Position numbers and translations under genes: made by a program. Positions 11,566-52,190 of a DNA stretch of 59,408 nt are shown here, piece after piece (position 1 is the first letter of the stretch; every line of letters starts with the position of its first letter). The notes under the pieces are model-generated. The model ran no database searches. It saw only the letters and a program-made list of their open reading frames with translations, and was not told the origin of the DNA. Source of the stretch: Nitrosopumilaceae archaeon (lineage in GTDB: Archaea > Thermoproteota > Nitrososphaeria > Nitrososphaerales > Nitrosopumilaceae); NCBI GenBank assembly GCA_965200155.1, contig CBDATR010000022.1:1-59408 (forward strand), read 5' to 3'.

Positions 11566-11931
11566 ATGATACCATTAATCCCTGTAATAGCACTCGCGGC
11601 GGCCATATCTGTTGGCATGATTCTATACGTGACTGGTGCCGCCTTGGAATTACAGGAGTTGAGAAGTGATGCATCTCAAAATACCCAGGAGCGATTACAA
11701 GAACGACTGACCGGTGAGTACGAGGGCAGTCCTACCAACATTAATGATGCTACCATCATATCTGAGTGGACAGAGGATTCTGTAATTACTGGAATCATTA
11801 TAAGGTGTCCGGACGGCTCGTCTGAGACCATACAGATTAATGATGAAAGAGTACCAGGCGGGGGCGCCTGGCAGATAGACCAGACAATACAGGATGATAT
11901 GCAGGATGCCGCGGGAAGGTGCCCGCCATGA
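11566..11931 (+). CDS. Membrane-anchored pilin-like/hypothetical protein
   Basis: Hydrophobic N-terminal helix; first gene of a four-gene overlapping operon; ATG 11566 preferred over TTG 11548. Confidence 0.6.
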   Translation: MIPLIPVIALAAAISVGMILYVTGAALELQELRSDASQNTQERLQERLTGEYEGSPTNINDATIISEWTEDSVITGIIIRCPDGSSETIQINDERVPGGGAWQIDQTIQDDMQDAAGRCPP

Positions 11932-14900
11932 GGCTTGCATATATCGTTCTAATCATGGTTCTAATGGTACCGGCTGCATACTCACAAGTGGACACAAGCC
12001 AGTATGACATTCACATACCGGACATGATGATTCGCGGTGAGAGTTACCAGGGTGTAATAATATCAGAAACACCTGCCGAGTATGATATAATATTCCGTTT
12101 CGGTGCAGGTGGCGGCGATGTCATACTGCCTGAAACCGTTACGCTATACTCTGGGAGTAACCACGCAATTTTTGATATTTTACCGGTGGATTCCACCATT
12201 CTAACGGGAAAAATCTCCACCATTATCACTGTTATCACACCGGACGGGAACATACACGAGATACCTGTCGAGACGCATCCTGGTGTGGGAACAGTCTCCC
12301 GTTTGTGGATTGTAGGCCCCGGCGAGAACGGCGCCACATGCAAGGAACCGGCCGATACCACATCAGCCGCTATATCTAATCGTGCCGCGGAAGGGATATT
12401 TGAGACACCAAATCCAAACAAAGAGATAAGGACCAACCTCTCTGAGACCACCATCCACCTATTCCTGGCTGACCGCTACTGCACGCCTGTGACTGCCCCG
12501 CCCGGCGGCATTACATTCATGGTATCATCGAATAGCCCCAACTTAACATTCGGCGATGACTCTACCCATGTCCGTGGACTAATCCCGGAAGGGTTCAGTA
12601 CTGGAATCATTGATGTCTCTGTGAGTGGGGACGGAATACTATACGCAACTGGGGATGGTGTAAGTCCGGATTCCATCAGCATATCAAGTGAGCCGGTTGA
12701 CGTGGAGATACACCTTGGCATAGGGCCGGAACAGTCCATGGAGTCATCATTTGTGAACTGGTTCGTCTGGATTACCAGGGACGGCGAGCAGTACGTGCCT
12801 GATTACCCTATTCCGCTCTACCTTACTACTAATAACCCGGTACTGTCTAGCTTTGATCGCTACCTCATTGACTCCACAAGCCCGACATTTGAGATAAGAC
12901 CACACAAGACATACCTGGTCCATGGAGTGGCATCCGGTGTCCTGCACGTAGGGACACCAGCTAGAGTGGGCGACTTGCGTGTACTTGCCGGAGATAGAGA
13001 GATAACCGTTACGGCCCATATCCCCGGCGTCGGAACGGCTACTGACACATTCCAGGTAGGAATACCCGGCCAGGTGGACAACGAGATTAACATCGATGTT
13101 GCAGGCATAGAGAGGTGCATGGAGGAGGAGGCAACGCTTCCGGACGGGTTCTACTCTCATTCTTGTACTAATATGTGGGAGAGCTTACTGATAGCCAGTC
13201 ACTTCTTTGATATCAGTGACGGAGTGGGCCAGAGCTCATATCTTGATAATGCTCAAGAGACCACCGCGTTCTTGGATGGTATATTCGGCGGCGACAACAC
13301 AGAGAGAGGCAAGGCACTATTCGATTTAGTGAATAATATCAACGAATATTCAATCACAGGTGATATAGGTGCAGGAATATCTGATGAAATAACGAATCTA
13401 TTCTCCCAGTATTTACAGACGTCTAATGTCAGTGTGGAAAGGGACTCGGGCCTTGGTGTTACATCAGAACAACTGGAACGACTCCCGGATGAAATATTGC
13501 CCAATGAGGTAGTCGTGGAGGCGTTCCCTGGAAAGGTCGGTACCTATCACTTAGTGGTATCAACCAGGTATAATGGTGGCGGGTTCAATGTTCCTACGTA
13601 TATTCCTGATGGTATCATTACACTGACGAGTTTCGGGTTAGAGCATGAGCCGGAAGTTCGCACATATGGCTCCAATGAAAGATTCGAGGCGCCCGGTACC
13701 AGACCTGCATCTGTTGTCATTCCAGTTATTATAACATACGAGGACGGTGGCCAGGTAACTGCATCATTGGGCGGTGTCGGTGGCAATACCATCATGATAG
13801 AGAATATCACGCCAGACAGTAAGAAACGGTTACATGTATCACCATTGCCCGGTTCCGGCCAGCGTGATTTAATCGCCATTCTAAGCGTGGTGGACTCGGA
13901 CGGGATGGTAGTGAACCACACCGGTGATATATTCGTGGAAGCGGGCAAGGGTGCCTCTGATGTAGCACTGACCGGTTGGCGCGGCGGGGGCGGCATGATT
14001 CGGGGCAGTGTGGACGGTGTCGGCGAGATAATCATACATGCGCCAGGACTTGGAGGCGGGACTGCTTTAACCACACCCGTAAGACACGAGACGGACATGT
14101 ACGTGTGGTATCCGGGAATGGTCCATGTAGCGGAAGAGTTCCCCTTGGTGGCCCATGCACTAGACTCGGATGGCCTGCCCATCCGGCCAATACAGGTAAC
14201 AGTGGCCGGTCAGGTGCAACAGTCCGGTTATGGCTTGGAGTTGTCCGCGGCAGGTAAAGTCCCCGTTATAGTAGAGTATGAGGGCATATTCCACGCAGGA
14301 GTGATAAATGGCTTTTTGAATACGGCCGACATTCGGGTCGATACTGCATTTGGCCGGTTAGTGCAGCTCAATGATACTATCATAATAGAGGTAGATACAG
14401 GAGTGATGCAGAATCCCAGGGTAACTGTCAGTGGTGGGGACTTGTTATTCAGCGGGGAGCGTGAAAGATGGGTCGCCCTAGCTGATAAGGCGGGCCCACA
14501 TACCATTGACATAACTGTGAACCAGCCGGGCTGGGAGCCATATAATGATGAAGTGGTCTTGCGCGTAACCCGCTTGTTCGATATTGACTATAACGCCATC
14601 ACTTCCCAGGGTGTCCGGGTAGTAGCGGACGCCAAGATATGCGGTGAAATGGTAAGGCCGGGAGTAATTCATTCCATGGAGAGGAATCTGTGCGAGGTAA
14701 CGGTCCCGGAATCAATGACCTTTGAGGGCATAAGCCATGAATTGGTATCATTGACAATAGACGGCGTTCCCGTACAGTCAGGTCTCATTCACGACTTTGA
14801 TGATAATACCGGTATAGTAGCAATGTATGAGGGAGTGATTCGGGTGGAGGCATTTGCCAGCTACTCTGATGGTACGGAAGAGGAGTTACTACTCAGGACG

Positions 14901-15173
14901 TATGCGCCAGATGATATTGTAACCATTCCAGTCGAGTCACAATATGACTACTTTGGACTTGTCTGGGACAGGCCCGATAAATGGGAGGGACTGCCGCCAG
15001 ACGCTATTACATATGATGGCAGAGTCCAGTGGTCAGCTTCTGAGGACGCCTTCATTACCATTCGATATGCACAGGATTTAACCTATGTTATAATACTTGG
15101 CGCGGCCGGACTGTCAGCGCCGGTCATTATACTGATGCGTGAGAAGATACCATTCCTGAGGTCGTTGCGATGA
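11919..15173 (+). CDS. Large acidic surface protein with signal peptide and C-terminal membrane anchor
   Basis: 1084 aa, beta-rich composition, N-terminal signal, C-terminal hydrophobic helix. Confidence 0.75.
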   Translation: MPAMRLAYIVLIMVLMVPAAYSQVDTSQYDIHIPDMMIRGESYQGVIISETPAEYDIIFRFGAGGGDVILPETVTLYSGSNHAIFDILPVDSTILTGKISTIITVITPDGNIHEIPVETHPGVGTVSRLWIVGPGENGATCKEPADTTSAAISNRAAEGIFETPNPNKEIRTNLSETTIHLFLADRYCTPVTAPPGGITFMVSSNSPNLTFGDDSTHVRGLIPEGFSTGIIDVSVSGDGILYATGDGVSPDSISISSEPVDVEIHLGIGPEQSMESSFVNWFVWITRDGEQYVPDYPIPLYLTTNNPVLSSFDRYLIDSTSPTFEIRPHKTYLVHGVASGVLHVGTPARVGDLRVLAGDREITVTAHIPGVGTATDTFQVGIPGQVDNEINIDVAGIERCMEEEATLPDGFYSHSCTNMWESLLIASHFFDISDGVGQSSYLDNAQETTAFLDGIFGGDNTERGKALFDLVNNINEYSITGDIGAGISDEITNLFSQYLQTSNVSVERDSGLGVTSEQLERLPDEILPNEVVVEAFPGKVGTYHLVVSTRYNGGGFNVPTYIPDGIITLTSFGLEHEPEVRTYGSNERFEAPGTRPASVVIPVIITYEDGGQVTASLGGVGGNTIMIENITPDSKKRLHVSPLPGSGQRDLIAILSVVDSDGMVVNHTGDIFVEAGKGASDVALTGWRGGGGMIRGSVDGVGEIIIHAPGLGGGTALTTPVRHETDMYVWYPGMVHVAEEFPLVAHALDSDGLPIRPIQVTVAGQVQQSGYGLELSAAGKVPVIVEYEGIFHAGVINGFLNTADIRVDTAFGRLVQLNDTIIIEVDTGVMQNPRVTVSGGDLLFSGERERWVALADKAGPHTIDITVNQPGWEPYNDEVVLRVTRLFDIDYNAITSQGVRVVADAKICGEMVRPGVIHSMERNLCEVTVPESMTFEGISHELVSLTIDGVPVQSGLIHDFDDNTGIVAMYEGVIRVEAFASYSDGTEEELLLRTYAPDDIVTIPVESQYDYFGLVWDRPDKWEGLPPDAITYDGRVQWSASEDAFITIRYAQDLTYVIILGAAGLSAPVIILMREKIPFLRSLR

Positions 15174-16942
15174 ATGTTATCCTACTTGTACTAATGGCGG
15201 CGTTAGCAGTTATGGTTACAGGTGTTGCCACTGCACAGCCATATCATATCATGACCAATTCGCCGGTCATGATTACAGGTGCCGGAACAGAGGTCGTTCT
15301 GGTATTTGGGGAGGCCCCTGACGCTCAGTGGGTGAATATCATTCTAAATAACGAGACACACCGCTCACAAGTACGTGATGGATCATTTCATGTTACCATG
15401 AAACCGCCCGCTCCCGGAATCTATGATGTGACTGGTACATGGTCGGCGATAAATACTGACCCGAGACCGGGCGGTGTCATGAAGACTACCGGCCACTTAG
15501 TGGATGGTATTCTTACCGTTCTAGGCCGGGGCTTTGATTATCTCCCTGGCGGTACCATAACAATCATGGAGGGCGCCTTTGATGATTGTAGTGATTCTTG
15601 TATACAATCAGATGTGGTGCAGGCCGGCGATTATGTCATTATAACGAATGCAGACGTAGAGAGGCACCAGTTCCGGACTAATGACCACCTAGCGGTTGAG
15701 TCAACGGGGAATCTTGATCCCGGCGAGACAGTCCGGCTACCATTCCATAACCAGGGAATAGCAACTTATACTTGCATTTATCATCCGTGGCTACAATTCA
15801 CCATTGAGTCCACCGGTGAGTACACACCAGAAGTAAGGGATGGCGCCATATTGCTAAAAGTCCCAGACTATGCAGAGGATATTGTAAAAATAGGCATCAC
15901 CCATACTGGTATGGCCCCCTCGGCTCATGTCATTCTAATACAGTCCGGGCAGGTATTGGAGGCCGGTGTTGCCCCTCTGAATAATGGAAGGGGGATATTC
16001 GCCGCGGATTCATTGGAGTGGAGCGTTGGGCAGGTTATCATATCAGTGTCGGCGGGAAATGACCATGCAACTGACACCATATCAGTTAGGCCACCACCGG
16101 GTGCCGTGGAACGTTCAGGAAGGATAACCGGCTATTCCGAACATGACGGCATCTTGATCAATGACATGGTTGCAAGGCCAGCTGGGATTATTCCCCTGAA
16201 TGCAGCCCAGCAGGCAACCCGCGATATCTGTATTCTAGGGAAGGAGGCGTTATTCCGCGGTGACATGGGACTGGCGCCCCGAGGCTCCCATTACACGGAA
16301 GGAACGGTATGGTGTGATGGTGTCAATCTTGGGATATACCTGCTGGAATCCGGTTTCGCCATTACCGACCCCACACAGTGTCCTGTTACCCATTCCCAGT
16401 GGTTAATACCATACTGTAATCCTGAACTAGTACCAGTCCCAAAAAGACCAATGGATAAGGAGCCGGTCATGATAGTTGAGCCTATAGAGCAGGAGGTTCC
16501 TGAGCCGGATATGATTCTAGAGCAGCCGGATATGATTCTAGAGCAGCCGGATATGATTCTAGAGCAGCCGGATATGACTCTAGAACCGGAAGATGCACCA
16601 CCTGCCATGCCTGATACTGTTGGAATAATCGAGCCCAGTATACCAGAAGAGACATGTGATCAGTCATGTCCGTGTCCGGATGGTTTCATTAGTGGAGTAG
16701 GGCGGTGTGACACGCCCATACAAGAAGAGGTAAGTGATGTCCGGGAGGGAGTAGTTGATATCCTGGTGCCTGGGCCGACGAAAATGCTGGGATCTGTAGG
16801 GGTAAGTGATGTCCGGGAGGGAGTAGTTGATATCCTGGGTGACTTCTTTGAGTGGATTATTCAGCTATTCAGTGAACTGTTTGTGGTAATGTCGGACTTT
16901 TTTGGAGGGCTGATCAGCATTGACGTTAATTGGCAAAGATAA
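15170..16942 (+). CDS. Secreted multidomain protein: cupredoxin domain + thermonuclease(SNase)-like domain + acidic repeats
   Basis: H...YTCIYHPWL copper-site motif; VWCDGVNLGIYLLESGFA resembles the SNase C-terminus; EQPDMIL repeats. Confidence 0.65.
   Translation: MNVILLVLMAALAVMVTGVATAQPYHIMTNSPVMITGAGTEVVLVFGEAPDAQWVNIILNNETHRSQVRDGSFHVTMKPPAPGIYDVTGTWSAINTDPRPGGVMKTTGHLVDGILTVLGRGFDYLPGGTITIMEGAFDDCSDSCIQSDVVQAGDYVIITNADVERHQFRTNDHLAVESTGNLDPGETVRLPFHNQGIATYTCIYHPWLQFTIESTGEYTPEVRDGAILLKVPDYAEDIVKIGITHTGMAPSAHVILIQSGQVLEAGVAPLNNGRGIFAADSLEWSVGQVIISVSAGNDHATDTISVRPPPGAVERSGRITGYSEHDGILINDMVARPAGIIPLNAAQQATRDICILGKEALFRGDMGLAPRGSHYTEGTVWCDGVNLGIYLLESGFAITDPTQCPVTHSQWLIPYCNPELVPVPKRPMDKEPVMIVEPIEQEVPEPDMILEQPDMILEQPDMILEQPDMTLEPEDAPPAMPDTVGIIEPSIPEETCDQSCPCPDGFISGVGRCDTPIQEEVSDVREGVVDILVPGPTKMLGSVGVSDVREGVVDILGDFFEWIIQLFSELFVVMSDFFGGLISIDVNWQR
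16502..16588 (+). repeat. 21-bp coding tandem repeat, ~4 units (EQPDMIL)
   Basis: GAGCAGCCGGATATGATTCTA units; also a ~38-bp direct repeat at 16729 and 16801 (VSDVREGVVDIL). Confidence 0.9.
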
Positions 16943-18815
16943 ACGATTAATAGTATATGTCACTCTATGCGTGATTGGCTGGGCGGGAGCCATTCTAGGT
17001 GACGGTACGCCACAGTGGTTGTTACTGGTGTTCATTTTGATGGCGGCCGGCGTTCTCATTCTATTATACCCGTATATGAGCGATAAGCGAACGGCTACAC
17101 ATGTTCAGGACTTGAAGCAGGACTATTTTACGGCCTTCTGGTTATGGGTCGAGAGGTACATTCACCGCCTAAGACATTTGAGGGAGTCATATGCGACATA
17201 CTTGAGAAAGATTGGCTCCGGTCTGCTCTATGATTATGATACCCATGCAGGCAGGGCCCTGTACTTGTCATTATCATTAATGCCGTTTACATCCATTCCA
17301 GTGATAACCGGCGAAATCATGACTATAGTAGTAGTAGCAGCTGCTCCCATCATTCTAGTCTATCCTATAATTCAACTATGGGAGAGGAGAAAGAAGCACG
17401 CGGTTCAAGTCGAGGAAGAGATGTCCTTCTTCATGTGTTATTTAACAACAATGCAGGGGGTCGGGTATACACTGTATACGGCGCTAGAGAGAATGCGGGA
17501 CGCGCCAGACGTCTTTATTGCACTGAGTCGTGATGCTGCATCAGTCGCCCAGAATGTCATGTTAGGGACATCACACATGGATGCCTTGAGGCAGTATGCC
17601 AGCAAGCATCCTGTTCCGGCCTTTAAGGATTTCCTGCATGGTTACATAAGTAAGCATGAGACTGTGGGTCCTGTTCCCTCATATACTGAAGCCAAATCCG
17701 AGCAGTTCTTTGAGTCATATAAGAATGCGTGGGTAAATTACAAGAATACCGCAATCATGTTAGCAGCAATGGCAGTCATGGCGTCAGTAATGATACCGGT
17801 CATGATGGTCATGATGGTATTCATCGCGCCGGATGCTACCGTCAACCTGTTACTGACCATGGGACCTATGCTGGGGCCGATATTTGCTATTCTCATTCTT
17901 TTCATGGTGGGTAGTGCCCAGCCCAGTACCGGTGTAAAAATGAAGCCTTGGTTACCATCGCTGGGTGTTGGTATGGCTGTTGTCATTATAGTACACATGT
18001 ACTGGGTCACGTATATCACTCCCGGTGGTGACATTTGGGATACAGAGCCTGGTGTAACTGTGTCCCTGGGTTTCATAGCTGCAGGACTCAGTAATTATAT
18101 AATGACCAGAAAGCAGATAACCGGCGCCTCAACTGTAGACAGAGGCTTGCCGGAATTCCTGGAAGACATTTACGAGCAGACACTGGCCGGTTCTGCCATC
18201 AGCAGTATTATTCGCCAGCAGGGGCGGGGTGGCCTGTATACTGGTGTATTTGGCAGGCTGTTACGGGGTATAGTAGCACAACTAGAGATGGGTATAACCA
18301 TGGAGGAAGCTTGCAGGGATGCGCGAAAATATAGTAGGCACCTAGCTTTCGTCCTGTTTGTAATAATACGGCTACAAGAGTTAGGTAGTACCACCCACAC
18401 GCCGGGTGTTCTACAGCAGATGACCCGCTTCATGAGTAATGTGGTTCTGGTAAAAATGGACGTCATAAAATCACTCAGGATGGGAGCCATAATGGTGTAT
18501 ATCTCACCTATTCTACTACTTGGAATAATGAATGGTATGTTCCTGGTATTCGCGTCTGGCGTGGACGACACTAATACATTGATGAATATACTGCCACCGG
18601 GAACGATGGAGGGATTCAGCCCGCCAAGTCCTGATTCCGGTTACAGGGAAAGACTGGGATTACTTGCAGCACTGCTAACATGCCCCATGGGACTGGCGGC
18701 CGCCAAGATTACCCGGTTCACGGCTGTTTACACCATTCCTGTGGTGATAGTCGCGACTGTTAACTTACTGGGAATAATTCTCATACCTATAGTGATAGAG
18801 GCGCTACCTGTGTGA
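16920..18815 (+). CDS. Type IV pilus/T2SS F-family membrane platform protein (TadB/TadC, ArlJ-like)
   Basis: Two T2SSF-like cytoplasmic repeats (EEEMSFF..G.TLYTALE; DRGLPEFL..G.TMEEA) between TM bundles. Confidence 0.8.
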   Translation: MTLIGKDKRLIVYVTLCVIGWAGAILGDGTPQWLLLVFILMAAGVLILLYPYMSDKRTATHVQDLKQDYFTAFWLWVERYIHRLRHLRESYATYLRKIGSGLLYDYDTHAGRALYLSLSLMPFTSIPVITGEIMTIVVVAAAPIILVYPIIQLWERRKKHAVQVEEEMSFFMCYLTTMQGVGYTLYTALERMRDAPDVFIALSRDAASVAQNVMLGTSHMDALRQYASKHPVPAFKDFLHGYISKHETVGPVPSYTEAKSEQFFESYKNAWVNYKNTAIMLAAMAVMASVMIPVMMVMMVFIAPDATVNLLLTMGPMLGPIFAILILFMVGSAQPSTGVKMKPWLPSLGVGMAVVIIVHMYWVTYITPGGDIWDTEPGVTVSLGFIAAGLSNYIMTRKQITGASTVDRGLPEFLEDIYEQTLAGSAISSIIRQQGRGGLYTGVFGRLLRGIVAQLEMGITMEEACRDARKYSRHLAFVLFVIIRLQELGSTTHTPGVLQQMTRFMSNVVLVKMDVIKSLRMGAIMVYISPILLLGIMNGMFLVFASGVDDTNTLMNILPPGTMEGFSPPSPDSGYRERLGLLAALLTCPMGLAAAKITRFTAVYTIPVVIVATVNLLGIILIPIVIEALPV

Positions 18816-18916: not shown

Positions 18917-19087
18917 ATGGCGACAGCAAGATACTCTGGGGCATTTAACATGACCATTAAAGAGTATGATATAATGAACAAATTGGTGGATGCAAAGAAG
19001 ATACGGTCACGCAACGCGTTTCATCTTGAAATGATACGCAGGTATGGTCCGGCCATACTAGAAGGGAGAGAACCACCAGTCCAATAG
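18917..19087 (+). CDS. Small ribbon-helix-helix-like DNA-binding protein
   Basis: 56 aa, ...MNKLVDAKKIRSRNAFHLEMIRRYG; paralog at 51115-51279. Confidence 0.55.
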   Translation: MATARYSGAFNMTIKEYDIMNKLVDAKKIRSRNAFHLEMIRRYGPAILEGREPPVQ

Positions 19088-21345: not shown

Positions 21346-21840
21346 TTGGTTGTAACCTTTGATCAGGCACTAGATACCGATGAAACGGACAAGGGCAGTT
21401 CTGTACACAAGACACAGCGGGGTGATAAATTTGAGGAACTAATGTCACATTATTTCAGGAATAATAGTATCTACAAGGACGTAAAATTATGGTATGACTG
21501 GTTCCATGAACAAGGTGCCGTAATCTATCTGGTTGAAGACAAGGACTGTAAGTGCTGGAATGATGATTCTAGTATAGACTTGGAAAATATCACACCTCTT
21601 CGTAAGATGGACAGGCTCATTATTGTATTCACGGGTGCAAATGTAAGCAAGCATACTGAACGACGTTGTTATATTACAACTCGACAAATCGCTTTAGGCG
21701 TTGACCACAGCAATAATGTAGAGTGGACATATCATGGACCACGTACATACAAAGCGAGTGATATGGGGAATACACGGATCTGGTGCGCTAGGAACAAGCC
21801 CACCAAAGTAGGGACTGTACATCACAGGGGGACTCGCTGA
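21346..21840 (+). pseudogene. Decayed Mrr-like nuclease N-terminus of a Type ISP-like gene
   Basis: GDKFEELMSHYF..IYKDVKLWYDW resembles KGKLFERLVKSF..FKEVWLWNDY of the next gene. Confidence 0.5.
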
Positions 21841-24800
21841 TGGATGGATTCAGTAAAGCATTAGAGCATCTCCGCGTCATATCTGACGGGAATGGTCACA
21901 CCAAGGGTAAGCTGTTTGAGAGATTAGTAAAGTCATTCTTGGAGACTGACAATTTATACCGGGAACGATTCAAGGAAGTATGGCTATGGAATGACTATCC
22001 TGATCGAGATGGCCGAGCTGATTTCGGTGTTGACCTAGTAGGGGAACAGAAGGATGGTTCGCGGTGTGCCATTCAGTGCAAGTTCTTTGATCGAAAACCG
22101 TTAACGAAGCGAGACATAGATAGTTTCCTAGAAGCCGGTTCCAGATCGGAATTTTGTAGTATGATTCTGTTCTATACTGGTACTGGTTATGGTAAGAAGG
22201 CAGAGGATGCCATGATTGGTCACAAATGCAAGGTGGTGAACCTTGAGTCCTTGGCTGGTAGTAACGTGGAGTGGCCGGATCTAGCCGCAGGTATCACTGA
22301 GGTAAAGCGAGTAGAACCATATTCTTTGCGGAAGCATCAAGGAAAGGCAATAGAGTCTGTCATGTCAGGATTGGAGAAGAATGATCGTGGTCAGCTGTTG
22401 ATGGCTTGTGGAACAGGCAAGACACTCACATCGTTACGGTTGGCGGAACAAATGGTTGGAGTAGGCGGGCTAGTACTATATGCCGTTCCCTCGATTTCTC
22501 TAATGCATCAGGCCATCCGGTATTATTCCGAGAATAGAACGATACCTCATTCTTATATCGGCGTCTGCTCAGATGTCAAAGTCAGTCACGGTGAGAGAAC
22601 GGACATACCAATAATAGAGATGGAGATAGGTGTCACAACTGATCATACCAGAATAGCAGAGGCTATAAAGAGTCATGATAGTCATTCCATGACTATTCTA
22701 TTCGTTACATATCATTCCATGAAGGCGGTGGTGGAGGCGCAGAAAATCTGCGGTAAATCATTTGATATTATACTTAGTGATGAGGCGCATCGCACTACTG
22801 GAGTCGAAGATAAGTCATCATTTACCATGATACATAATGATGTAATGGCCAAGAAGCGACTATACATGACCGCCACTCCGAGAATATACAAGGCGGCATC
22901 TAAGAGCCGGGCCAAAAAAGAGGATAAAATACTACATTCCATGGATGATGAAAAGATATTTGGGCCCGTTCTACATGAGTTATCATTCAGTGATGCAATA
23001 GATCAGCACTTACTATCAGACTATCAGGTTATCATTCTAGGTGTAGATGAACGGTATGGCCTGAACCACTCCATCATAGACACAACCACAGATGAGGGGG
23101 ATCTTAAACTGACGGACGCCGCTCGTATGCTGGGGCTGTATCGTGTACTAGAGCACCCGAATGACTCGATGTCACCACTACAGACTGCTATCGTTTACAC
23201 GAATCGTGTCCGTGACTCCAAGCGGTTTGAAAAGTCGTTCTCTAACCTGAGTGTAAGTAGTGGTTTCAGCTGTGATGCTAGACATGTGGACGGTACTCAG
23301 AACGCGTCCGTGCGAGCAGAGGCCATACAATGGCTGAGAAATAGTACTACTAACCCAAAGCAATGTCTTATACTCAGTAATGCAAAGTGTCTGTCAGAAG
23401 GTGTGGATGTCCCTGCCCTTGATGCAATATGTTTCATGGATCCTAAACGTTCCCAAGTGGAGATAGTACAAGCTGTTGGTAGAGTCATGAGGACGGCCCC
23501 TGGCAAAAAGTTTGGTTATGTAATAATACCCATAGGTGTACCGCCTGATGAAAAGTCTGTAAACATCTTGAATAATAACACAGTATTCAAGCAGGTCTGG
23601 GATGTCTTGCGCGCCATGCGCTCCCATGATCAAACAATGGGGATAGAGGCGGACATGGCCAGCATGAGGAAACGACCCCCTGGCAAGGTCCGGTTTATTG
23701 GTGTTGATCGTAACGGGAATGCCAGCGAACAGGACGGGAATGATGTCATAAAATTGGGTGAGCTAGATGTCCCCGCGGATATGCTATACTCAAAAATCGT
23801 CGAGGAGGTCGGTGATCGCCGTTACCTGGAACACTGGGCTAGTGACGTCGCGGATGTAGTACAAAGAATACAAAGCCGTATAGAGAGGGTTATCAAGCAA
23901 CCTGGTGTTGCCAGAAATAACTTTAATCATTTCATGAAAGGACTCCGGGAGATAATACACGACAGTCTTAAAGAGTCAGAGGGAATAGAGATGCTATCCC
24001 AGCATATGGTGACTAGAAGGATATTCAACACTCTATTCCAGAATGATGACTTTAACAGGAATAATCCCGTATCGGCCGCGCTGGACAAAGTCGTGGAAGA
24101 ATTACATGATCACGGTTTAGATACGGAGTTAAGAGATATAGAACAATTTTATCGTTCCATCGAGAACCGCGTCAGTGGTATAGACAATGATGCCCGTCAA
24201 CAAGTCATTAGTGAGTTGTATGGCTCCTTCTTTGAGAGGGCGTTCCCCAAGATGGCTGATAGATTGGGAATCGTGTACACGCCGGTTGAGATAGTTGACT
24301 TTATACTGAAATCAGTTGATCATGTCTCCAAGGAGAACTTTGGCCGGGGACTGACCGATGCCGGTGTCAATGTCATTGATCCATTCACCGGGACTGGAAC
24401 ATTCCTTACAAGACTGATGTCGCCGGATCTTGGAATAATACATGACGACGACATGGAAAGGAAATATCGCCATGAGCTATTCGCGTCTGAAATTGTATTA
24501 TTGGCATATTATATCGCAGCGGTGAATTGTGAATCCGTATATGGTTCCAGGACTGGTTCATTCAAGCAGTTTGAGGGATTGTCATTATGTGATACATTCA
24601 ATCCTGGACGTTTGGCTGAACACACTGGTGACGTCATGGCTGAGCCAAAGAAGCGTATTAGAAAACAACGAGAATCTGAGATTAATGTGGTTATATGTAA
24701 TCCACCATATTCTAGTGGACAAAAGTCGGCTAGTGATGACAACAAGAATGTCTCTCACCCCATTCTAGAACGACACATAAAGAACACCTATACGAGTAAG

Positions 24801-27184: not shown

Positions 27185-27198
27185 GGAGGAATAATTCC

Positions 27199-36861: not shown

Positions 36862-37298
36862 CGTTTCACTCTCATTATCAACAGGCTACTCAAGGCAGCT
36901 ATGATTGAGCCATACTGCACTCCCATAAGCATTAACTGAAAGATGTCATGGATTCCTATTCCTTCCCTGGCTTTGGTAAGGTTAACTTGAATGTCTGCCT
37001 CGCTTAATTTGTGGGCTTCTTTGATACAATCGGGATTACATTTGCCCGGCTTGAAATTCTTGTAACACTTGCCATTTTCATAGGAGAATGTATAATCACG
37101 CTCATTCGCCCCGTCATCTGGTGCGCACATTATCTCGCCCCTCCATATGGGTGGCAACATGAATATCTCCATACTATTCCCGGAAACCTGCTCTACCGTA
37201 ATGGGTACTAACCATACAACAAGACAGCACAGAATGAAGAATGTCACTATATCATTAATGGTACCGGCTTCCTTTCCTATCACGTATCTTTGGTACAT
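36855..37298 (-). CDS. Two-TM hypothetical protein with Cys-containing loop
   Basis: Overlaps both neighbours in the operon. Confidence 0.6.
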   Translation of the reverse strand: MYQRYVIGKEAGTINDIVTFFILCCLVVWLVPITVEQVSGNSMEIFMLPPIWRGEIMCAPDDGANERDYTFSYENGKCYKNFKPGKCNPDCIKEAHKLSEADIQVNLTKAREGIGIHDIFQLMLMGVQYGSIIAALSSLLIMRVKRC

Positions 37299-37549
37299 TT
37301 AGCTACTCCTATCAATCCTAGAATGACAAAGATGACCATCACAAGTAATGACCACTGGATGGTCTCCCAGATTAGTATATTAATGCCAGCCAAATGGTTC
37401 AGGCTCCCACCGGTAAGTGCCTCATAGAGGATGGGCGCCGCCAGCAGAATAACCATTAGAATGACCGCCCGTGTCAGTATGCCTCTAATCTTCTCGGCAA
37501 CTTCCTTGGCATCTCCCTTCTCGTTTACCATCCTATGATACATTGGCAA
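37280..37549 (-). CDS. Small two-TM protein, possibly VirB2/TrbC pilin-like
   Basis: 89 aa, two hydrophobic helices; context. Confidence 0.45.
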   Translation of the reverse strand: MPMYHRMVNEKGDAKEVAEKIRGILTRAVILMVILLAAPILYEALTGGSLNHLAGINILIWETIQWSLLVMVIFVILGLIGVAKCTKDT

Positions 37550-39758: not shown

Positions 39759-41790
39759 TGGCTTCTGTGTTCAGGCACTCCTTCAGTAATGACTCTCGCT
39801 TCTCCATATCTCCAACAGGGTCCTGTGTATTATTCCGGAAACAGGCCTCCTTGTACTGCTTTGTCTCCAGTAATGACTCCATTTCCATGAATGTGTCCCC
39901 GTCCAATTCATACGTGAATAATTCCTTTAGTTTGGGCTTGCCGTCATCGTCCGGTGTCACCTCAGTGATATTCCTAACACGCCGCTTTGATATCCCGCCT
40001 ATACGGACTTCTGTTATATAGATGATGAAGCCCAGTAATGCTAGTTCCGCGTGTGATACACCACCTAGGCTCATTCTTGTCATGGCTCCCCGGGGCGTGT
40101 TCGCGTGGAATGTCGTATTATGGCTAATGATTCCATCACCATGAGTAAAATTCCCCGCGGTTGCTACCTCCAAGTCATAGAGGTGTGTTCCTAAAGATGG
40201 CCGCTCCACCATTCCAATCATCTCCATGGAGTACTCATTACTTACAGGGAAGTACCATTCTGGGATGATTCCAGAACATGACTCCCTAACGAATTCTTCC
40301 GACCCGCTCAATGCGAACTGTTTCAGGTCAGCCGCGCCCTGCAGTGTCTTGCCGCTCCTGCCATTCAGCTGCATGACTGCTCTCTGGCCGTCCAGTCCAA
40401 TGTGGGTAGCAACATCTCGGTGTAACCCCTTTATGACAGGTAATGAGTCACCGGGTTTTACCTTCTCGGCTGCCATCACTCCACGATCAGTTATCATGTC
40501 ATGTCCCGCGTGGACGGTAATGGTGGCGCCACCAGCCGTTATCTGTCTCCAGTCGTCATTGCCGTGCTTGACAACGGTTCCTGTAATTCTGTGCCAGTCG
40601 CATCTTCCACCTGCCATGGAATAAGCGTATAATGCCTCGCCGTCCCGGAACCGCTCTATCACGTTTCTTATTGTGTCATATGATATTATCCTACCACATT
40701 TGACGGGGAGCATCTCCTGTGGCGGCAGGCATAATCCGCCGTGGCCTGTTCCCATACTCTGGAATAGGTGCCTTGCATCACCGACGTCCCTTATCTCGCC
40801 GACTATCTCATAGTCTGGCTTCTGTGTTAGTGACTGGTCGATTAACTTGGGGATGGTTATATCATGTTCTGCGCCTACTATACTGGTGGTCTTCTTTGTG
40901 TGGTACCGGACCCAGTCTGTATGGGGTATCTGCAATTCTAGTGAGTCTTCTATTGTTAAAATTCTCCAGCGGGGATTCATCATTGTGGTCATGGCACCTA
41001 ATAGTGTGGTCTTGCCGGAGCCGGTCGTTCCTATGACTAGTCCGGCCGCGCGCGCATCCAGTAATGACCATAGGAATGCAGCCATTCTTGGCGTTAGTGT
41101 ATTTCCCCGCATCATGTGGGTAATGACGTATGGATCCTTGGGGAATTTCCGTATGGCAATAGTGGAGCCGGGTTCTGAAACAACATTCTTGAATGTAGCC
41201 GATATACGTGATTTATCCGGCAAGTATGTAACGGCGCCCGGTTTCGATACTGTAGGCTCATTACCGGTAGTAATGAACATTCGTCCAATGAATGCGGACA
41301 TCTCATTATCACTGGGGAATGATACGTTAGCCTCCAGGGAATGGAAACGATTAGAGTGTTTCTTGTGTTTGAGGAATACGGGCCTTTGTGGTGCTGAGAC
41401 CAGAATATCCTCAATCTGTGGGTCCATCATTAATGGATGTAGAATGCCGTAACCGGTCAAATCCCTGGTAATGTAATATCGTAATGAATGGAAGAGCCCT
41501 TCTAGATCCCTTTTTGAGTATATGGTTAGTCCTACTTCCCAGAACTTGTCATACATGATTCTCTCAATTTCCGCCGATGACTTGCCGCGCGTATTCAGGA
41601 GTGTGCTCTCCCGCATCTTGTCCACCACTTTTGTGTACGCCTGTGCTGCGGCCTCGGAGAACTGGGGCTCATCCACTAGATAACGGCCATCACCTGTAAT
41701 GGTAATTGATACCCGACCGTCCGCGACAGTATACTGTTCAATGACATCGAGTGTCTTGGTATCTACGCTTGAGCGGAGTATACTATCCAT
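39706..41790 (-). CDS. Type II/IV secretion ATPase (FlaI/TadA/VirB11-like) with intein
   Basis: DPQIEDI, IRKF, GTTGSGKTT, TIEDSLE, IVGEIR, TGHGG|intein|TTFHA. Confidence 0.9.
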   Translation of the reverse strand: MDSILRSSVDTKTLDVIEQYTVADGRVSITITGDGRYLVDEPQFSEAAAQAYTKVVDKMRESTLLNTRGKSSAEIERIMYDKFWEVGLTIYSKRDLEGLFHSLRYYITRDLTGYGILHPLMMDPQIEDILVSAPQRPVFLKHKKHSNRFHSLEANVSFPSDNEMSAFIGRMFITTGNEPTVSKPGAVTYLPDKSRISATFKNVVSEPGSTIAIRKFPKDPYVITHMMRGNTLTPRMAAFLWSLLDARAAGLVIGTTGSGKTTLLGAMTTMMNPRWRILTIEDSLELQIPHTDWVRYHTKKTTSIVGAEHDITIPKLIDQSLTQKPDYEIVGEIRDVGDARHLFQSMGTGHGGLCLPPQEMLPVKCGRIISYDTIRNVIERFRDGEALYAYSMAGGRCDWHRITGTVVKHGNDDWRQITAGGATITVHAGHDMITDRGVMAAEKVKPGDSLPVIKGLHRDVATHIGLDGQRAVMQLNGRSGKTLQGAADLKQFALSGSEEFVRESCSGIIPEWYFPVSNEYSMEMIGMVERPSLGTHLYDLEVATAGNFTHGDGIISHNTTFHANTPRGAMTRMSLGGVSHAELALLGFIIYITEVRIGGISKRRVRNITEVTPDDDGKPKLKELFTYELDGDTFMEMESLLETKQYKEACFRNNTQDPVGDMEKRESLLKECLNTEANDIKSVFGILGRYYAER
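40117..40731 (-). mobile_element. Mini-intein (205 aa) in the secretion ATPase
   Basis: GGL|CLPPQE...HAGH...LYDLEV...GIISHN|TTFHA. Confidence 0.9.
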
Positions 41791-41824: not shown

Positions 41825-42287
41825 ATCAAGGGACTATTACTCCTAAAGATGGGAATGATGCCCACCTGGTGGTGAATAAGTCACTGAATGAATTCATGGA
41901 ATAATCAGGAAATACCACACCGAACAATGGTTTGTGTTAGTGGCTTTTTTGGAAGCAAATCCCTATTAAACGCGCTTTTGTTTCCCCAAAACTGTTTCCA
42001 TAGAATCATGTTCTCATCCTGTGCATCCACATAATAATTGGTTTTTTATTCGGCGCTGTAACATGATAAGGGTGGGCGCTATACGCCGGCCACATTCATT
42101 CTACCGCCGTCCAGGGGGAATGTTTCCATGATGGGCTCTATCCAAACCCCAGTTAAATAGAAACATATCAAATGTTGGGATGCCGCCAGCGGGGATACAG
42201 ATTCGAAAATGACATAGCCAAGCGATATGTGGCTGGCGCGCATGGCGGCTGGGCGCCTCATCGATAGGCCTGCCTGACATACTGGCA

Positions 42288-42671
42288 GTGTCTGAGGATT
42301 CAGTTCACGTACATGAGCTGAAAACCACCTTGGGCAAGACCATAAGGATACCTGCCCACCAGATAAGGCGTTGTTATGATGTAGCAGAGTCATTTCCCAA
42401 ATATTATGGACTGGTCATTATATCAGCACGCTTTGGGCGGCGGGCAGAAAGGCACTACTGGCAAGATGGATTAGAATCAGTCAAGATAGGAATAGATGAC
42501 AAGACCCGCGGTAGCCAGCTGAGGGAAATAACATGGGAAGACTTGTTAGGACTATCATTCCAAGTCCCTTGTCTAGCTGGGAATCATTCCCGGAACACAT
42601 CCAAGAATGATTCAATCTGCGCGGATGACCCGCAACGATTCAGAGATGATCCGGGCGTCCTGATTGTATAG
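42288..42671 (+). CDS. Hypothetical protein
   Basis: ORF only. Confidence 0.3.
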   Translation: MSEDSVHVHELKTTLGKTIRIPAHQIRRCYDVAESFPKYYGLVIISARFGRRAERHYWQDGLESVKIGIDDKTRGSQLREITWEDLLGLSFQVPCLAGNHSRNTSKNDSICADDPQRFRDDPGVLIV

Positions 42672-44722: not shown

Positions 44723-44785
44723 TAAAAATTAGTTGACATGTAATGTTAAAAACATTGCTTTGATACTGATGTGAGTAAATACATG

Positions 44786-46166: not shown

Positions 46167-46697
46167 CTATTCAAAGAGGATCACCCCCGTGATAATGGCT
46201 GCGCCAACAAGGAAAGTGACCATGGGCAACCCTGGATACACAATCATGCCACTGGCGTCCGGCTTGGCAACAGTTCCATCCTCACATATGATACAGAAAC
46301 GGTCATCCCGTTTTTTGACAAAGTACAAGAATCGTTTGGGGAATGGTAAGTCCGTCCTTCTCACGCATATCATAATGTGGCATAACAACATGGTTACCAT
46401 CCCGCCAGATACCATCATGATAACAGCCATGATATCGATGGTCAGCATTGCCATTGATAACCCGGATATGAACCACCAGTCACCGGAACCGGCAAATTTC
46501 CATGTCACCACAGTGATGATTCCGATCATACTGCCGCCGACTAGAATGGTTGTGAAATCAATCGTCTCATATGATAATACCAGAACGGCGGCACTCACCA
46601 TTAATGCGGTAATACATGACTCTAATGCGACACTTCTATCTCTATAATCAGAGACAGCTGCCGGTATCATGCAGAGAACGGCCAGTATCCATTCCAT
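46167..46697 (-). CDS. Prepilin peptidase (A24, PibD/FlaK-like)
   Basis: AVSDYRDR and GSGD catalytic aspartate motifs; C-terminal PGLPMVTFL. Confidence 0.82.
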   Translation of the reverse strand: MEWILAVLCMIPAAVSDYRDRSVALESCITALMVSAAVLVLSYETIDFTTILVGGSMIGIITVVTWKFAGSGDWWFISGLSMAMLTIDIMAVIMMVSGGMVTMLLCHIMICVRRTDLPFPKRFLYFVKKRDDRFCIICEDGTVAKPDASGMIVYPGLPMVTFLVGAAIITGVILFE

Positions 46698-48482: not shown

Positions 48483-48695
48483 TAGACCTTATGCGCAGAA
48501 TCACTTCCCCCACCTTGCGTGAAAAAGGTCAAGGGACTAAATATTCCCAACAAGGGGACTGTTGTTCCAGTCCAATGAATCCATATAGGTCGCTCAAGCA
48601 ATACTGAATCCGGTTGTAACACACGCTCGGTACCATTTCCACTGGTTAACCCCAATTTGGAGCGGCCTTGATGTCAATCATGCGTATAAGGTCTA
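48483..48695 (+). mobile_element. ~213-bp MITE of a second family (IS5/IS630-like ends)
   Basis: Inverted ends TAGACCTTATGCGCA / TGCGTATAAGGTCTA. Confidence 0.7.
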
Positions 48696-49433
48696 TTGCG
48701 TTCTCTCCATCTTCCACATCATAATATCTGAAATCAAATCATCAAACGGTTTTACCTTGTTGCAGTATCCACAGTGAGATTTGGTATCACAGTCGTCAAA
48801 GATTTTGGTGTTTTGTGACCGGTATCCTCTGCTTTGCATTTGACTGAATATATTATAAAATAACGAGATGTCTTCCATGATCTTGTTTTGTGTATTGCCA
48901 TTACCATATTGCTTTATAACGTAAACCCTGTCCATGAATGTCTCTAGTCTTCGTCTTGCTGCTGTGGGTTTTTCACAGGTTCCTAACTCTGTCTTTTTTT
49001 CATATCTGTCCTTATCTTCTGTAACCATTACCATTCTCATCGGATGATGTTTTAGTACAGTTGCCCAAAAAGTTGATTCTGTCTCTCTTGAATGAAATGA
49101 AGTCTTGCAGCTTATGATTCCCAATACATACCACTGAATTGTGAAACCATCGTGATTCTTTTTGCGATACAGAACAACAAGGTCGGTATCGGGCAAATCC
49201 AGTCTGTAACCCTGTGCACAGTCTGTAGGAAATCTTACCCTGATAAAATCAAGAACCTTTTCTTTGTAGTCGTCCTCTATGATTGATTTTTTGTTGTCTA
49301 TCTCATTTAGTGCAGCTATTGTGATGTCTTCCTTGTTGAGAATGCTGTTCAGTATCTGCTTGACATTAAGCTCTAGTTTTTTTCCTACTTTTGCCCTTTT
49401 ACCTTGGTGTCTTGATATTACTTCTTCTGCCAC
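48693..49433 (-). CDS. Type II restriction endonuclease, BsaWI-like PD-(D/E)XK
   Basis: LPDTDL...IISCKTS motif, overlapping a methyltransferase gene. Confidence 0.65.
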   Translation of the reverse strand: MAEEVISRHQGKRAKVGKKLELNVKQILNSILNKEDITIAALNEIDNKKSIIEDDYKEKVLDFIRVRFPTDCAQGYRLDLPDTDLVVLYRKKNHDGFTIQWYVLGIISCKTSFHSRETESTFWATVLKHHPMRMVMVTEDKDRYEKKTELGTCEKPTAARRRLETFMDRVYVIKQYGNGNTQNKIMEDISLFYNIFSQMQSRGYRSQNTKIFDDCDTKSHCGYCNKVKPFDDLISDIMMWKMERTQ

Positions 49434-50484
49434 TTGTTACGAGTTGTTTTTCAGGCGGTAATAAGTGATCACTCATGTACAGATCGAGTTTTGAGGATTT
49501 TTTCCCGCTTTTGATGTCATATTCCATTATGCGCTTTTGTGCCACTTTGCAGTATTCCTTGGACGTATCAATATGGATAAAATTCCTTTTTGTCTTATGT
49601 GCTGTCAATGCTGTGGTTCCGGTTCCCCCGAACATGTCTAGGACTGTATTGTCTTTGTATGTGTAGTATTTTATTAGCCTGTAAATCAGGTCTTCCGGAA
49701 ATGGTGCCGGATGTCCATTTCTTTTGGTTTCTGGCTGTATGTGCCAATAAGCATCAGAGAATTTCTTAAACTCTTGCCCTGTTATGTCAATATCCTTTTT
49801 GTTTCCATCGAGGCTCATGGAATCCTTACAATAAACCAACACATATTCCCAAGAAGGCATCACATGAGGGTTTGACGGACTCTTCCAGCTTCCCCAAGCT
49901 GTTCTCTTGTAGATGTTTTGCTTGTACCATAATATTTCAGCTCTGAAAATGAATCCCATATCCCTCAGCCTTTCTGAAATATCATGGTGTATGGGCTTGA
50001 AATCGGCTATTCCTGTAGGTGCAATGTTTAATGCAAATCGTCCACCGTCAACAAGTACCCTGTACAGCTCACGAAATACAGTCTCCAACCAACCAAGGTA
50101 TTGTTCATAATCCATGTTGTCTCTGTGTTCGGAATAATCCAGACTCACATTGTAGGGAGGAGACGTTATCGCCATGTGTATGGAATTATTTGGAAATTTC
50201 TTCATGGTATCAAGAACGTCTGCATTGATTATCTTGTTTGTTGGAAGAGCAACATCATTCTCCAATTTTATTTTGTTGTAGTTTAGTGTCAACTGTGTCA
50301 TCTTTTCTCGATATTCTGATATTTTTTCACGAAGTTGTCTCTGTTCTAGTTCATTGTATTTTTGCTCAGCTTCTATGCTTCCTTCTCGTCCACAAGATAT
50401 GTCAAACTGTTTTTTTGTAGATGGATCATATCCTCTGAATGTTACGTACCTGTTTTTTTTGATTGTTCTTATTATCCTCATCAC
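49399..50484 (-). CDS. Beta-class amino (N4-C/N6-A) DNA methyltransferase with N-terminal extension
   Basis: ITSPPYN, HPAPFP, LDMFGGTGTT. Confidence 0.9.
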   Translation of the reverse strand: MMRIIRTIKKNRYVTFRGYDPSTKKQFDISCGREGSIEAEQKYNELEQRQLREKISEYREKMTQLTLNYNKIKLENDVALPTNKIINADVLDTMKKFPNNSIHMAITSPPYNVSLDYSEHRDNMDYEQYLGWLETVFRELYRVLVDGGRFALNIAPTGIADFKPIHHDISERLRDMGFIFRAEILWYKQNIYKRTAWGSWKSPSNPHVMPSWEYVLVYCKDSMSLDGNKKDIDITGQEFKKFSDAYWHIQPETKRNGHPAPFPEDLIYRLIKYYTYKDNTVLDMFGGTGTTALTAHKTKRNFIHIDTSKEYCKVAQKRIMEYDIKSGKKSSKLDLYMSDHLLPPEKQLVTSGRRSNIKTPR

Positions 50485-51114: not shown

Positions 51115-51279
51115 TTGGAAGCAAGATACTCCGGTGGCTGCATTATGGGGCAGTATGAATATGACATGCTGACAAAACTGGTAGAGTCAGGAAAGATACG
51201 ATCAAGAGGCAGGTTCTTCCGTGAGATGATACGCCGACACGGAAAGGCCATACTGGAAGGCAGAGAGCCGCCAATCTAG
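51115..51279 (+). CDS. Small RHH-like protein, paralog of 18917-19087
   Basis: ...LTKLVESGKIRSRGRFFREMIRRHGKAILEGREPPI. Confidence 0.55.
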   Translation: MEARYSGGCIMGQYEYDMLTKLVESGKIRSRGRFFREMIRRHGKAILEGREPPI

Positions 51280-52190
51280 TTTTTTGTATATTTTGTAGGG
51301 TGTGTCGCGGAACAACCGGGACATAATGTATTAGAACGAACCCAGGAGCAGCCGGGCACCTTGTAACCACTCCTCTTTATCTGGTTGATGTGATACTCTG
51401 TTATCTTCTTGTTATAGTCCGGGGCGCCCTGGAACAGGTCACTGATGTCTGGAATATCGATACCTGTATTCAGGTGGTACGTTGCCACAAGGAAGCGGCC
51501 TGAATGTGATAAATTCCCGCCTTGAGATATCATATCCAGGCACTTTGTTATGCACGGGGGTGTGTCGCCACTCTTAATGACTTTGTTATACTCACACCAT
51601 TCTGTAATGTCTGGTGGTACCTCTATGGGCGGCAGTCTTGTCATCTTCTCGATACGATTCCTAATGTACCGAGTAATGGCATCTCGCATTAATCTGAGGA
51701 ACTTGTCCGGCTCCAGATGGACAAAGCCCTTGTTCACATGCTGGTTGATTAGCTTCCATGTATTTCCAAGGCCGACCGCCAATGGCAAATATTGGGAGAC
51801 ATGCAACGTATACAGGCCTTTATCACTGCCTGGTTCTGAACCTAATACTTCCCGGCATATGGGAGTTATGTCTACATTGCGCCCCTGCATCATGTGGATG
51901 GAGTATAGTGCTTCTGTGTATGAGAACCGGCCTATCAGTTTATGGTTATTCATCCTCCTACATAATATAACGGCCGCCAGGAATGACTCTGTTCCTTCCG
52001 GCTCCATGTAGCGGCGGTCTAGAATAATTTCCTCGATTGCTCTATTCTTGGCCCACCGCTCCCAGTCATGTATTCCCGGATGCATTCCCGCAATAGCCGC
52101 CCTTACCCTTTCTACACCCAAGTCGATGTTAATCTCGGTCTTGCCTTTCATGTGAATAGCGGATTCCGGCATGAAATGTAGTAATACCAT
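51276..52190 (-). CDS. priL: Archaeal DNA primase large subunit
   Basis: WKLINQ..KGFV, PPCI, NLSHSGRF, PDYNKKITEY, YKVPGC...LCPGC..HP (Fe-S domain). Confidence 0.88.
   Translation of the reverse strand: MVLLHFMPESAIHMKGKTEINIDLGVERVRAAIAGMHPGIHDWERWAKNRAIEEIILDRRYMEPEGTESFLAAVILCRRMNNHKLIGRFSYTEALYSIHMMQGRNVDITPICREVLGSEPGSDKGLYTLHVSQYLPLAVGLGNTWKLINQHVNKGFVHLEPDKFLRLMRDAITRYIRNRIEKMTRLPPIEVPPDITEWCEYNKVIKSGDTPPCITKCLDMISQGGNLSHSGRFLVATYHLNTGIDIPDISDLFQGAPDYNKKITEYHINQIKRSGYKVPGCSWVRSNTLCPGCSATHPTKYTKN

Follow-up and report, generated by a model that had tools for sequence, protein, structure and literature searches.

A candidate relaxase domain fused to the VirD4-like ATPase of a probable large integrative and conjugative element in a sponge-associated Nitrosopumilaceae archaeon

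The closest described systems are the thaumarchaeal integrative and conjugative elements (ICEs), such as NCAV2-E1/E2, NitEve-E6 and others (Abby et al., 2018, PMC5797428; Krupovic et al., 2019, PMC6563490; excerpts of both). According to the sections of PMC6563490 considered here, these elements encode type IV secretion system (T4SS) ATPases, TadC, pilus ATPases, a peptidase, pilins and TFIIB, and no relaxase candidate was found in them. According to excerpts of other sources, archaeal conjugation has no known relaxase (PMC12282955, PMC12857230, PMC9905601), or archaeal relaxases are unknown or rare (PMC3548315, PMC3158045). The MOB_C relaxases belong to the PD-(D/E)XK nucleases (excerpts of PMC12857230 and PMC3424549), and the PAPI-1 island, a bacterial element named in the legend of Figure 5 of PMC12857230, pairs a type IV pilus with a T4SS.

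Here, we analyzed a DNA stretch of 59,408 bp (hereafter, the window), which is the entire contig CBDATR010000022.1 (C22) of a Nitrosopumilaceae archaeon (genome G000: 2.38 Mb, 51 contigs, 88% complete), together with other contigs of the same genome (C43, C12, C35, C24 and C9) and same-genus relatives (G001, G004, G005 and G009). The sequencing runs with window DNA include sponge metagenomes (7 runs from 2 studies), and the closest relatives are Nitrosopumilaceae chromosomes, in agreement with the Nitrososphaerota-like host proposed in a preliminary description of this DNA. The data tested were assembled contigs; excision and cell-to-cell transfer are predicted. The window very likely represents the central part of a large ICE in the chromosome of a sponge-associated Nitrosopumilaceae genus. 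Two points were absent from the preliminary description: the element extends beyond the window, and its VirD4-like protein, of 741 amino acids, has a nuclease-like tail. The two features concerned are:

37533..39758, minus strand: VirD4/TrwB-like ATPase fused to two winged helices with a PD-(D/E)XK domain between them (TrwB_AAD_bind, E 2e-8; TraG-D_C; no membrane anchor)
37800..38198, minus strand: nuclease-like domain of this protein, candidate relaxase (residues 521-653; H532, D563, E589, E591, N610, K613)

The predicted fold of residues 425-741 of the VirD4-like protein consists of a winged helix, an alpha/beta domain and another winged helix (predicted local distance difference test, pLDDT, 86). 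Matches to the last winged helix filled the result of a fold search with this entire C-terminal part, and the nuclease domain was therefore refolded alone, with a pLDDT of 90. The best fold matches of this middle domain are PD-(D/E)XK nucleases, namely Can2 (Z 7.7; root-mean-square deviation 3.3, 116 aligned), NucS (6.9), PaqCI (6.8) and BsaWI (6.5). With the nuclease domain, Foldseek found nothing at E 0.001. The fold matches listed include no structure of a MOB_C relaxase, which neither supports nor excludes a relaxase.

The nuclease domain is present in 100 of the 169 proteins collected, and its H, D, E, E, N and K residues are conserved in 84-100 of 105 aligned rows. The domain occurs, nearly always within long open frames, in 31 of 201 genomes of the family, there as fused VirD4, and in 18 of 401 genomes of the phylum. 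A profile that was built without the named plasmids gave 28.5-9.8 bits with the VirD4/TraG proteins of all six of them (pHV1, pARN4, a Halorussus plasmid, pNOB8, pT33-3 and pAH1); among 707 controls, either shuffled or reversed, no score exceeded 4.0 bits. With the pNOB8 domain, 17 plasmids were retrieved, that is, 16 of Sulfolobales plus pT33-3, and with the pHV1 domain 51 records, of which the 40 listed are all haloarchaeal.

An HHalign comparison of the tail with 16 CloDF13-type MobC relaxases yielded 94.9% over 169 columns, in which the winged helix, the H, the PD and the ExE align; this value stems from a 113-row alignment, and a shallower one gave only 32.7% versus MobC. Compared separately with MobC, the winged helix reached 83.6% and the nuclease half 90.7%. 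As controls, 30 column-shuffled alignments scored at most 1%, a generic winged-helix regulator 18%, and seven other nuclease families at most 3.6%, although the alignments of these families were shallow (1-9 rows), and alignment depth accounts for part of their low scores. The VirD4 tail contains a MOB_C-like PD-(D/E)XK domain, a candidate for the relaxase that archaeal conjugation lacks so far, and we lean towards the view that this domain cuts DNA.

The VirD4-like protein was matched in 20 of 61 related genomes, and 64-67% identical orthologues are located inside contigs of 1.8-2.5 Mb in G001, G004, G005 and G009. The genome of G009 is one 2.5-Mb contig, a complete chromosome of the same genus, and holds an orthologous element of 143 kb between 14-bp direct repeats at 2,312,827 and 2,455,998. 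The repeat, with two occurrences in 200 kb, is the 3' end of tRNA-Val(TAC), which is adjoined by a tyrosine-recombinase-like integrase gene, and it coincides both with the tRNA end and with the border of the conserved element genes. The gene to the left of the G009 element sits just downstream of the same, uninterrupted tRNA in G000. Matches in G000 were found for 68 of the 128 G009 element genes, and the best match of 51 of these 68 lies on C43, C22, C35 or C12.

Window positions 11,075-11,547 overlap the right end of C43 with 94-95% identity over 392-473 bp, which is the sole match of that end. C43 carries VirB4 and TBP together with ArgRS, ProRS, topoisomerase IB and the proteasome alpha subunit. 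The 44.4-55.3 kb region of the window is repeated on C12 at 97-99.9%, and C12 continues into pieces of TFB, MCM and a PCNA-like gene. These observations place the element in the chromosome and show that it exceeds the window. The whole element comprises about 140 kb, and the window is one piece of it; the G000 copy is spread over C43, C22, C12 and C35 and is full of insertion sequences, with MCM, TBP, VirB4 and TFB distributed over these contigs and a TFB on C35. The ICE that the preliminary description had considered is supported. Its remark that housekeeping context was lacking applies to the window, in which tRNA, Rfam and Pfam scans detected no tRNA, Rfam family or housekeeping gene, but not to the linked C43.

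The G005 region shares 78 of its 153 genes with G009, and 49 are common to both G009 and G000. G001 harbors a 48-kb element between 18-bp repeats at tRNA-Val(GAC) (C13, 1097546-1145527), which has an integrase, a fused VirD4, TBP and defense genes, and lacks VirB4, TadC and the pilus ATPase; VirB4 is present elsewhere in the G001 genome. This satellite fits a relaxase-bearing mobilizable element. A 331-amino-acid gene common to the element and the satellite was considered as a relaxase and dismissed, as it had no family match.

Further observations were made on related DNA. On the tRNA-bearing contig C9, broken copies of the 1081-amino-acid surface gene described below, of priL and of the CAP gene (43.6-44.2 kb and 60.9-63.7 kb) are what is left of a related element that had inserted earlier. 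An element-type nrdJ with three internal stops in G008 (C208, 901-3609), a genome in which VirD4 was not found, represents another decayed copy. Calls of tRNA-Ser, tRNA-Arg and tRNA-Met inside the G005 element region (1664528-1664679 and 1672832-1672904) may be element-borne. Two ParB-domain genes of G000 (C19, 8816-9058; C30, 13967-14209), on contigs of 51% GC without tRNAs, possibly belong to another mobile element.

The element carries genes for nucleotide and DNA metabolism, of which the window contains the following:

33091..35835, minus strand: class II ribonucleotide reductase NrdJ (TIGR02504, 608 bits)
51276..52190, minus strand: element-type primase large subunit PriL (PF04104; in a clade with the G005 and G009 copies)
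42184..42671, plus strand: Hjc resolvase pseudogene, frameshifted near 42228

The host has copies of its own on C24, a priL beside priS and an nrdJ, which are 34% and 48% identical to the respective element proteins. The preliminary description, which had credited the element with a reductase and a primase subunit of its own, is corroborated in this respect, and the refuting condition that it had named, namely that these are the only priL and nrdJ of the host, does not hold. In a tree made with a quick method, unrooted and without outgroup, the PriL proteins of the G000, G005 and G009 elements are separated from 30 host-type copies by a long, fully supported branch. The element NrdJ proteins share 66% identity among themselves and 47-49% with 15 host copies, whereas the host NrdJ of G000 is 69-75% identical to the other 14; the NrdJ tree included 14 of 28 host loci and no outgroup. 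In these trees, the element PriL and NrdJ form long-branch clades apart from the host copies. All three element NrdJ proteins (G000, G005 and G009) share the site of an intein that is absent from the two host copies inspected; in the window, it comprises 227 amino acids (about 34084-34764) and lies just before the catalytic Cys of NPC. A 310-amino-acid protein encoded on C43 of G000 (84238-85179) and in G005 (1747660-1748589) combines an N-terminal ATP cone with a C-terminal four-cysteine ribbon that resembles the tail of the host NrdJ, a tail that the element NrdJ lacks; a class II reductase may be split here, with this protein as a second subunit.

A Pfam scan of 102 proteins, picked from 146 of the G005 and G009 regions, identified VirB4, MCM, PriL, two TBPs, four TFBs, Hjc, the ATP-cone protein, exonucleases and many defense genes. 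The four TFIIB homologues are located in the G005 region; between the two regions, PriS and a dCMP deaminase were found in that of G009 (PriS in G009 only). In G000, TFB is in pieces on C12 and C43.

The pilus and transfer genes of the window, apart from VirD4, are:

11566..11931, plus strand: small protein encoded by the leading gene of the TadC operon, with an N-terminal hydrophobic segment (gene order kept in G005 and G009, whose orthologues are 51-54% identical; no family match)
11928..15173, plus strand: 1081-amino-acid surface protein with a signal peptide and a C-terminal membrane anchor, possibly adhesin- or S-layer-like (hydropathy; 52-55% identical orthologues)
15170..16942, plus strand: 590-amino-acid surface protein (orthologues, hydropathy)
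16920..18815, plus strand: TadC/T2SSF membrane platform of a type IV pilus (PF00482, E 2.7e-15; UpsF model, E 2.5e-47, below cut-off)
18917..19087, plus strand: small RHH-like regulator, weak assignment (63% identical paralogue at 51112-51279)
30475..31209, plus strand: pilin-like protein with a class III-like signal of basic residue, small residue and hydrophobic helix (44% identical orthologues; no family match)
31687..33090, minus strand: VirB6/TrbL-like polytopic membrane protein (7 predicted membrane segments; 50-53% identical orthologues)
35885..36508, minus strand: PrgI/VirB3-like membrane protein (label by position and hydropathy; 66-73% identical orthologues; no family match)
36508..37298, minus strand: two overlapping membrane open reading frames of 117 and 147 amino acids (one in-frame gene of about 272 amino acids in G005 and G009, split here)
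37280..37549, minus strand: putative VirB2-like two-helix membrane protein (hydropathy and conserved position; no family match)
39706..41790, minus strand: type IV pilus assembly ATPase of the FlaI/VirB11 family with an intein of about 205 amino acids (PF00437; NCBIfam FlaI, E 5e-58)
46167..46697, minus strand: A24-like prepilin peptidase (no family match of its own; both Asp motifs in three copies)

Thus, the co-occurrence of pilus, secretion, nrdJ, priL and restriction-modification genes noted in the preliminary description is real, with clear family matches for TadC, the pilus ATPase, the VirD4-like protein, NrdJ, PriL and the restriction-modification genes. Among its other labels, that of the prepilin peptidase holds via the 44% identical G005 orthologue, which reaches Peptidase_A24 (PF01478) with 26.5 bits, exactly the cut-off; the RHH label is weak (RHH_1, E 0.03 for the paralogue 51112-51276), and the pilin, VirB2-, PrgI- and VirB6-like labels have no curated match. 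The Atlas neighbors of the VirB6-like protein are TraJ/TrbL clusters at 0.86-0.89, a lead-level match. At the split membrane gene, no indel versus the window was seen in the four sequencing runs compared. Distant copies of the 1081-amino-acid surface gene lie beside VirD4 in G036, G006, G304, G490, G451 and G023; the VirD4 gene is directly behind TadC in G036, G006, G451 and G023, and VirB4, TadC and the pilus ATPase are within about 20 kb of it in G304 and G155. In these distant modules too, then, the genes of the pilus accompany those of transfer. An apparent TadC-VirD4 fusion in G451 (a 1799-amino-acid open frame) was rejected because TadC is in another frame. The mixture of type IV pilus and T4SS parts that had been highlighted is indeed present; it is not new, having been published for thaumarchaeal ICEs (excerpts of PMC6563490).

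The window also contains cargo:

21840..29619, plus strand: type ISP restriction-modification genes, one split and one partial copy (Pfam; relatives on at least five other contigs)
48693..50484, minus strand: BsaWI-like nuclease and N6/N4 methylase (Pfam)
52216..53148, minus strand: CAP/SCP-domain secreted protein (Pfam)

The type ISP, fn3, IS66 and IS1595-type genes have many copies genome-wide and are not element-specific. Outside the conserved element genes, a split N6/N4 methylase is followed by a small HNH nuclease (8423-9583). Two fn3/Ig-repeat surface genes in inverted orientation (4003-5960 and 42862-44756) belong to a genome-wide family that is far deeper than its neighbors in contigs of two RNA runs, with copies summed. 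Several window genes are covered by contigs of RNA runs, of which DNA carry-over is a possible source. Imperfect repeat clusters rich in TGATCA are located at 10100-11100, 19950-20900, 26850-27150, 46800-47100 and 53000-54700; such clusters occur on C22, C12, C35, C43 and C9, with one motif match on C24 beside a type ISP gene, and a role as iterons or transfer origin (oriT) was rejected because they had no match in the regions of the relatives. A 115-bp miniature repeat at 3517-3631 and nine other places of the window, with hundreds of genome copies, is probably a miniature inverted-repeat transposable element. None of the spacer-length pieces of host repeat arrays (286 and 10, from two crude arrays) matched the four element contigs.

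Several results weigh against a relaxase function of the VirD4 tail. The Z values of the fold matches are middling, 7.7 at best, and the top matches are general nucleases (Can2, NucS and restriction enzymes). The tail of the window protein has no match to Replic_Relax (PF13814) or MobC (NF041423), one relative reaching E 0.11, below the cut-off. The MobC residues after the ExE (RTVK...RY) are replaced by P..H...N..K, and the His before the PD is absent in the proteins of Sulfolobales and pT33-3. Furthermore, 68 of the 169 collected proteins have a Walker A without the nuclease domain, some VirD4 proteins of Nitrososphaerota, among them both of G044 (open frames of 451 and 469 amino acids), are tailless, and the two published NCAV2 ICE VirD4 genes are only about 1.3 kb long according to the entries considered in the annotation file of PMC6563490. 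The general-nuclease matches, the replaced residues and the missing His would fit an accessory nuclease that degrades the non-transferred strand, resolves junctions, or processes double-stranded DNA for a HerA/FtsK-like transfer of double-stranded DNA; the idea of such transfer in archaeal conjugation is cited in the sections of PMC6563490 considered. A pump-plus-pilot protein, moreover, must somehow release or carry the DNA end. We regard the accessory nuclease as a tentative possibility. However, the winged helix and the nuclease half each align to MobC and the other nuclease families do not, and a CloDF13-type plasmid has mobC immediately after the gene of the coupling protein, which is the order of the fused domains. 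A stand-alone Replic_Relax protein gave no match above the cut-off in five genomes.

For the element as a whole, several observations speak against an ICE. The 14-bp repeat of G009 is weak on its own (E 0.11), the overlap of C43 and the window is 95%, not 100%, identical, and C35 lacks an end link to the other element contigs. In G005, the same genes surround an integrase at tRNA-Ile, rearranged and on both sides of tRNA and integrase, and no attachment (att) repeat was found within 300 kb. All ParB (PF02195) matches in G005, G009 and G000 lie outside the element regions. The pilin, VirB2-like and PrgI-like proteins have no Pfam or NCBIfam match, and these labels, like that of VirB6, rest on hydropathy, position and weak Atlas leads. 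In the 88% complete G000, no integrase homologue was found; the att search proposed in the preliminary description, successful in G009, yielded none in G000, where 14-mers of 38 tRNA 3' ends were compared with eight contigs and the single match was rejected, as it falls inside a repeat family. Given that no integrase, element PriS or att repeat was found, that one membrane gene in the transfer operon is broken into two open reading frames, and that Hjc carries a frameshift, the G000 copy is probably damaged or immobile. These defects, the TFB pieces on C12 and C43, the many insertion sequences, the broken remnants on the chromosomal C9, and the flat DNA depth over 30.4-42.6 kb of the window in two DNA-like runs of two studies speak for a domesticated, non-transferring island, that is, an old ICE in which the pilus and the surface proteins have been turned to sponge adhesion while the DNA-transfer part decays. 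Such a fate, which is conceivable but falls short of being probable, may hold for the G000 copy even if the family is mobile. Against domestication, VirB4, VirD4, the pilus ATPase, TadC, the VirB6-like protein, NrdJ and PriL are all full length in G000, the spread of the fused VirD4 in the family is patchy, and the tRNA targets differ among the elements of G009, G005 and G001. The free megaplasmid that the preliminary description had also proposed, and with which the gene content of the window and the element's own MCM, primase and reductase would agree, is largely refuted and very improbable, because the relatives' copies reside within complete chromosomes, C43 joins element and housekeeping genes, and the ends of the window do not match each other, so that the contig is not circular. 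Large DNA viruses typically encode such proteins as MCM, a PCNA-like protein, primase, ribonucleotide reductase, Hjc, dCMP deaminase, TBP and TFB; however, a provirus rich in genes for replication and transcription is highly unlikely, as the Pfam scan of the 102 proteins revealed no capsid, portal or terminase family, a PHROGs scan of 42 unassigned proteins gave 2 matches, neither structural, and a complete VirB4/VirD4/TadC set is present.

An intact ICE of the G009 type could operate as follows. The tyrosine integrase would insert the element at the tRNA 3' end, between the att repeats, and excise it, and the excised circle would use the element's MCM, PCNA-like clamp and primase subunits for a replication that the element's NrdJ would feed. 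The TBP and TFB paralogues would steer the host RNA polymerase to element promoters. The type IV pilus (pilin, peptidase, ATPase, TadC and the large surface proteins) would make the cell contact, and the channel would be built from VirB4 and the membrane proteins resembling VirB6, VirB3 and VirB2. The VirD4-like ATPase most likely would both cut and pump the DNA, with the winged helix binding the transfer origin and the PD-(D/E)XK domain cutting it. In a broader model, whose prospects we judge to be evenly balanced, conjugation across Nitrososphaerota, Sulfolobales, Thermococcales and haloarchaea would use a single-chain coupling protein-relaxase, that is, a MOB_C-related nuclease fused to VirD4, which is here joined to a type IV pilus and to the element's own helicase, clamp, primase, ribonucleotide reductase and basal transcription factors in an unusually autonomous ICE. 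The named residues of the tail are open to mutation in the laboratory-transferable plasmids pT33-3 and pNOB8. If the model is true, many archaeal elements called non-mobilizable could be reclassified. The element itself is a putative gene-transfer vehicle in sponge-symbiotic ammonia oxidizers with more replication and transcription genes than the ICEs surveyed in 2019.

How does the element compare with known systems? The plasmids pNOB8, pARN4 and pAH1 (Sulfolobales), pT33-3 (Thermococcus) and pHV1 (Haloferax) encode VirD4/TraG proteins with the same winged helix and PD..ExE tail; the archaeal plasmid proteins comprise 1007-1370 amino acids with an extra N-terminal part, in contrast to 741 here, and are encoded by free plasmids. 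A VirD4-nuclease fusion is not described in the openly readable literature covered, a scope that excludes most subscription papers, Catchpole 2023 (pT33-3) and Greve 2004, nor in the excerpts of PMC5797428, PMC4858521, PMC4158269, PMC13532300, PMC9259645 and PMC3424549. The MOB_C relaxases (CloDF13 MobC and pAD1 TraX; PF13814, NF041423) also have a winged helix and then an H...PD...ExE nuclease, and their gene is right behind that of the coupling protein. Unlike the tail, they are stand-alone proteins of 243 amino acids with other residues after the ExE, and the archaeal domain misses the family cut-offs. As in PAPI-1 and in the IncI plasmid R64 with its thin pilus, a pilus for contact is combined with VirB4/VirD4 for transfer; these two, however, use bacterial parts and separate relaxases.

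Integration at a tRNA between att repeats, with a tyrosine integrase, as in the thaumarchaeal ICEs, is seen in the orthologous G009 element, whereas neither integrase nor att repeat was found in G000. With these ICEs, the element shares VirB4 and VirD4, TadC, a FlaI/PilT ATPase, a prepilin peptidase, pilins (by signal pattern) and TFIIB, whereas the counterparts of their VirB6 and VirB3 are recognized here by hydropathy and Atlas leads only. ParB is found beside TFIIB in most, not all, of these ICEs (excerpts of PMC6563490), but not next to TFB in the element. With about 143 kb in G009, the element exceeds the median of 64 kb given for thaumarchaeal ICEs and the 140 kb of the largest integrated mobile genetic element in the same excerpts. 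In the portion of the annotation file of PMC6563490 considered, 'ribonucleotide reductase' and 'PCNA' have 0 entries, and the TBP row and the MCM row inspected refer to non-ICE elements. The element, unlike the surveyed thaumarchaeal ICEs, carries NrdJ, PriL (with PriS in G009 only), MCM, a PCNA-like protein and two TBPs, and this replication and transcription cargo is what is new here compared with the thaumarchaeal ICEs surveyed in 2019.

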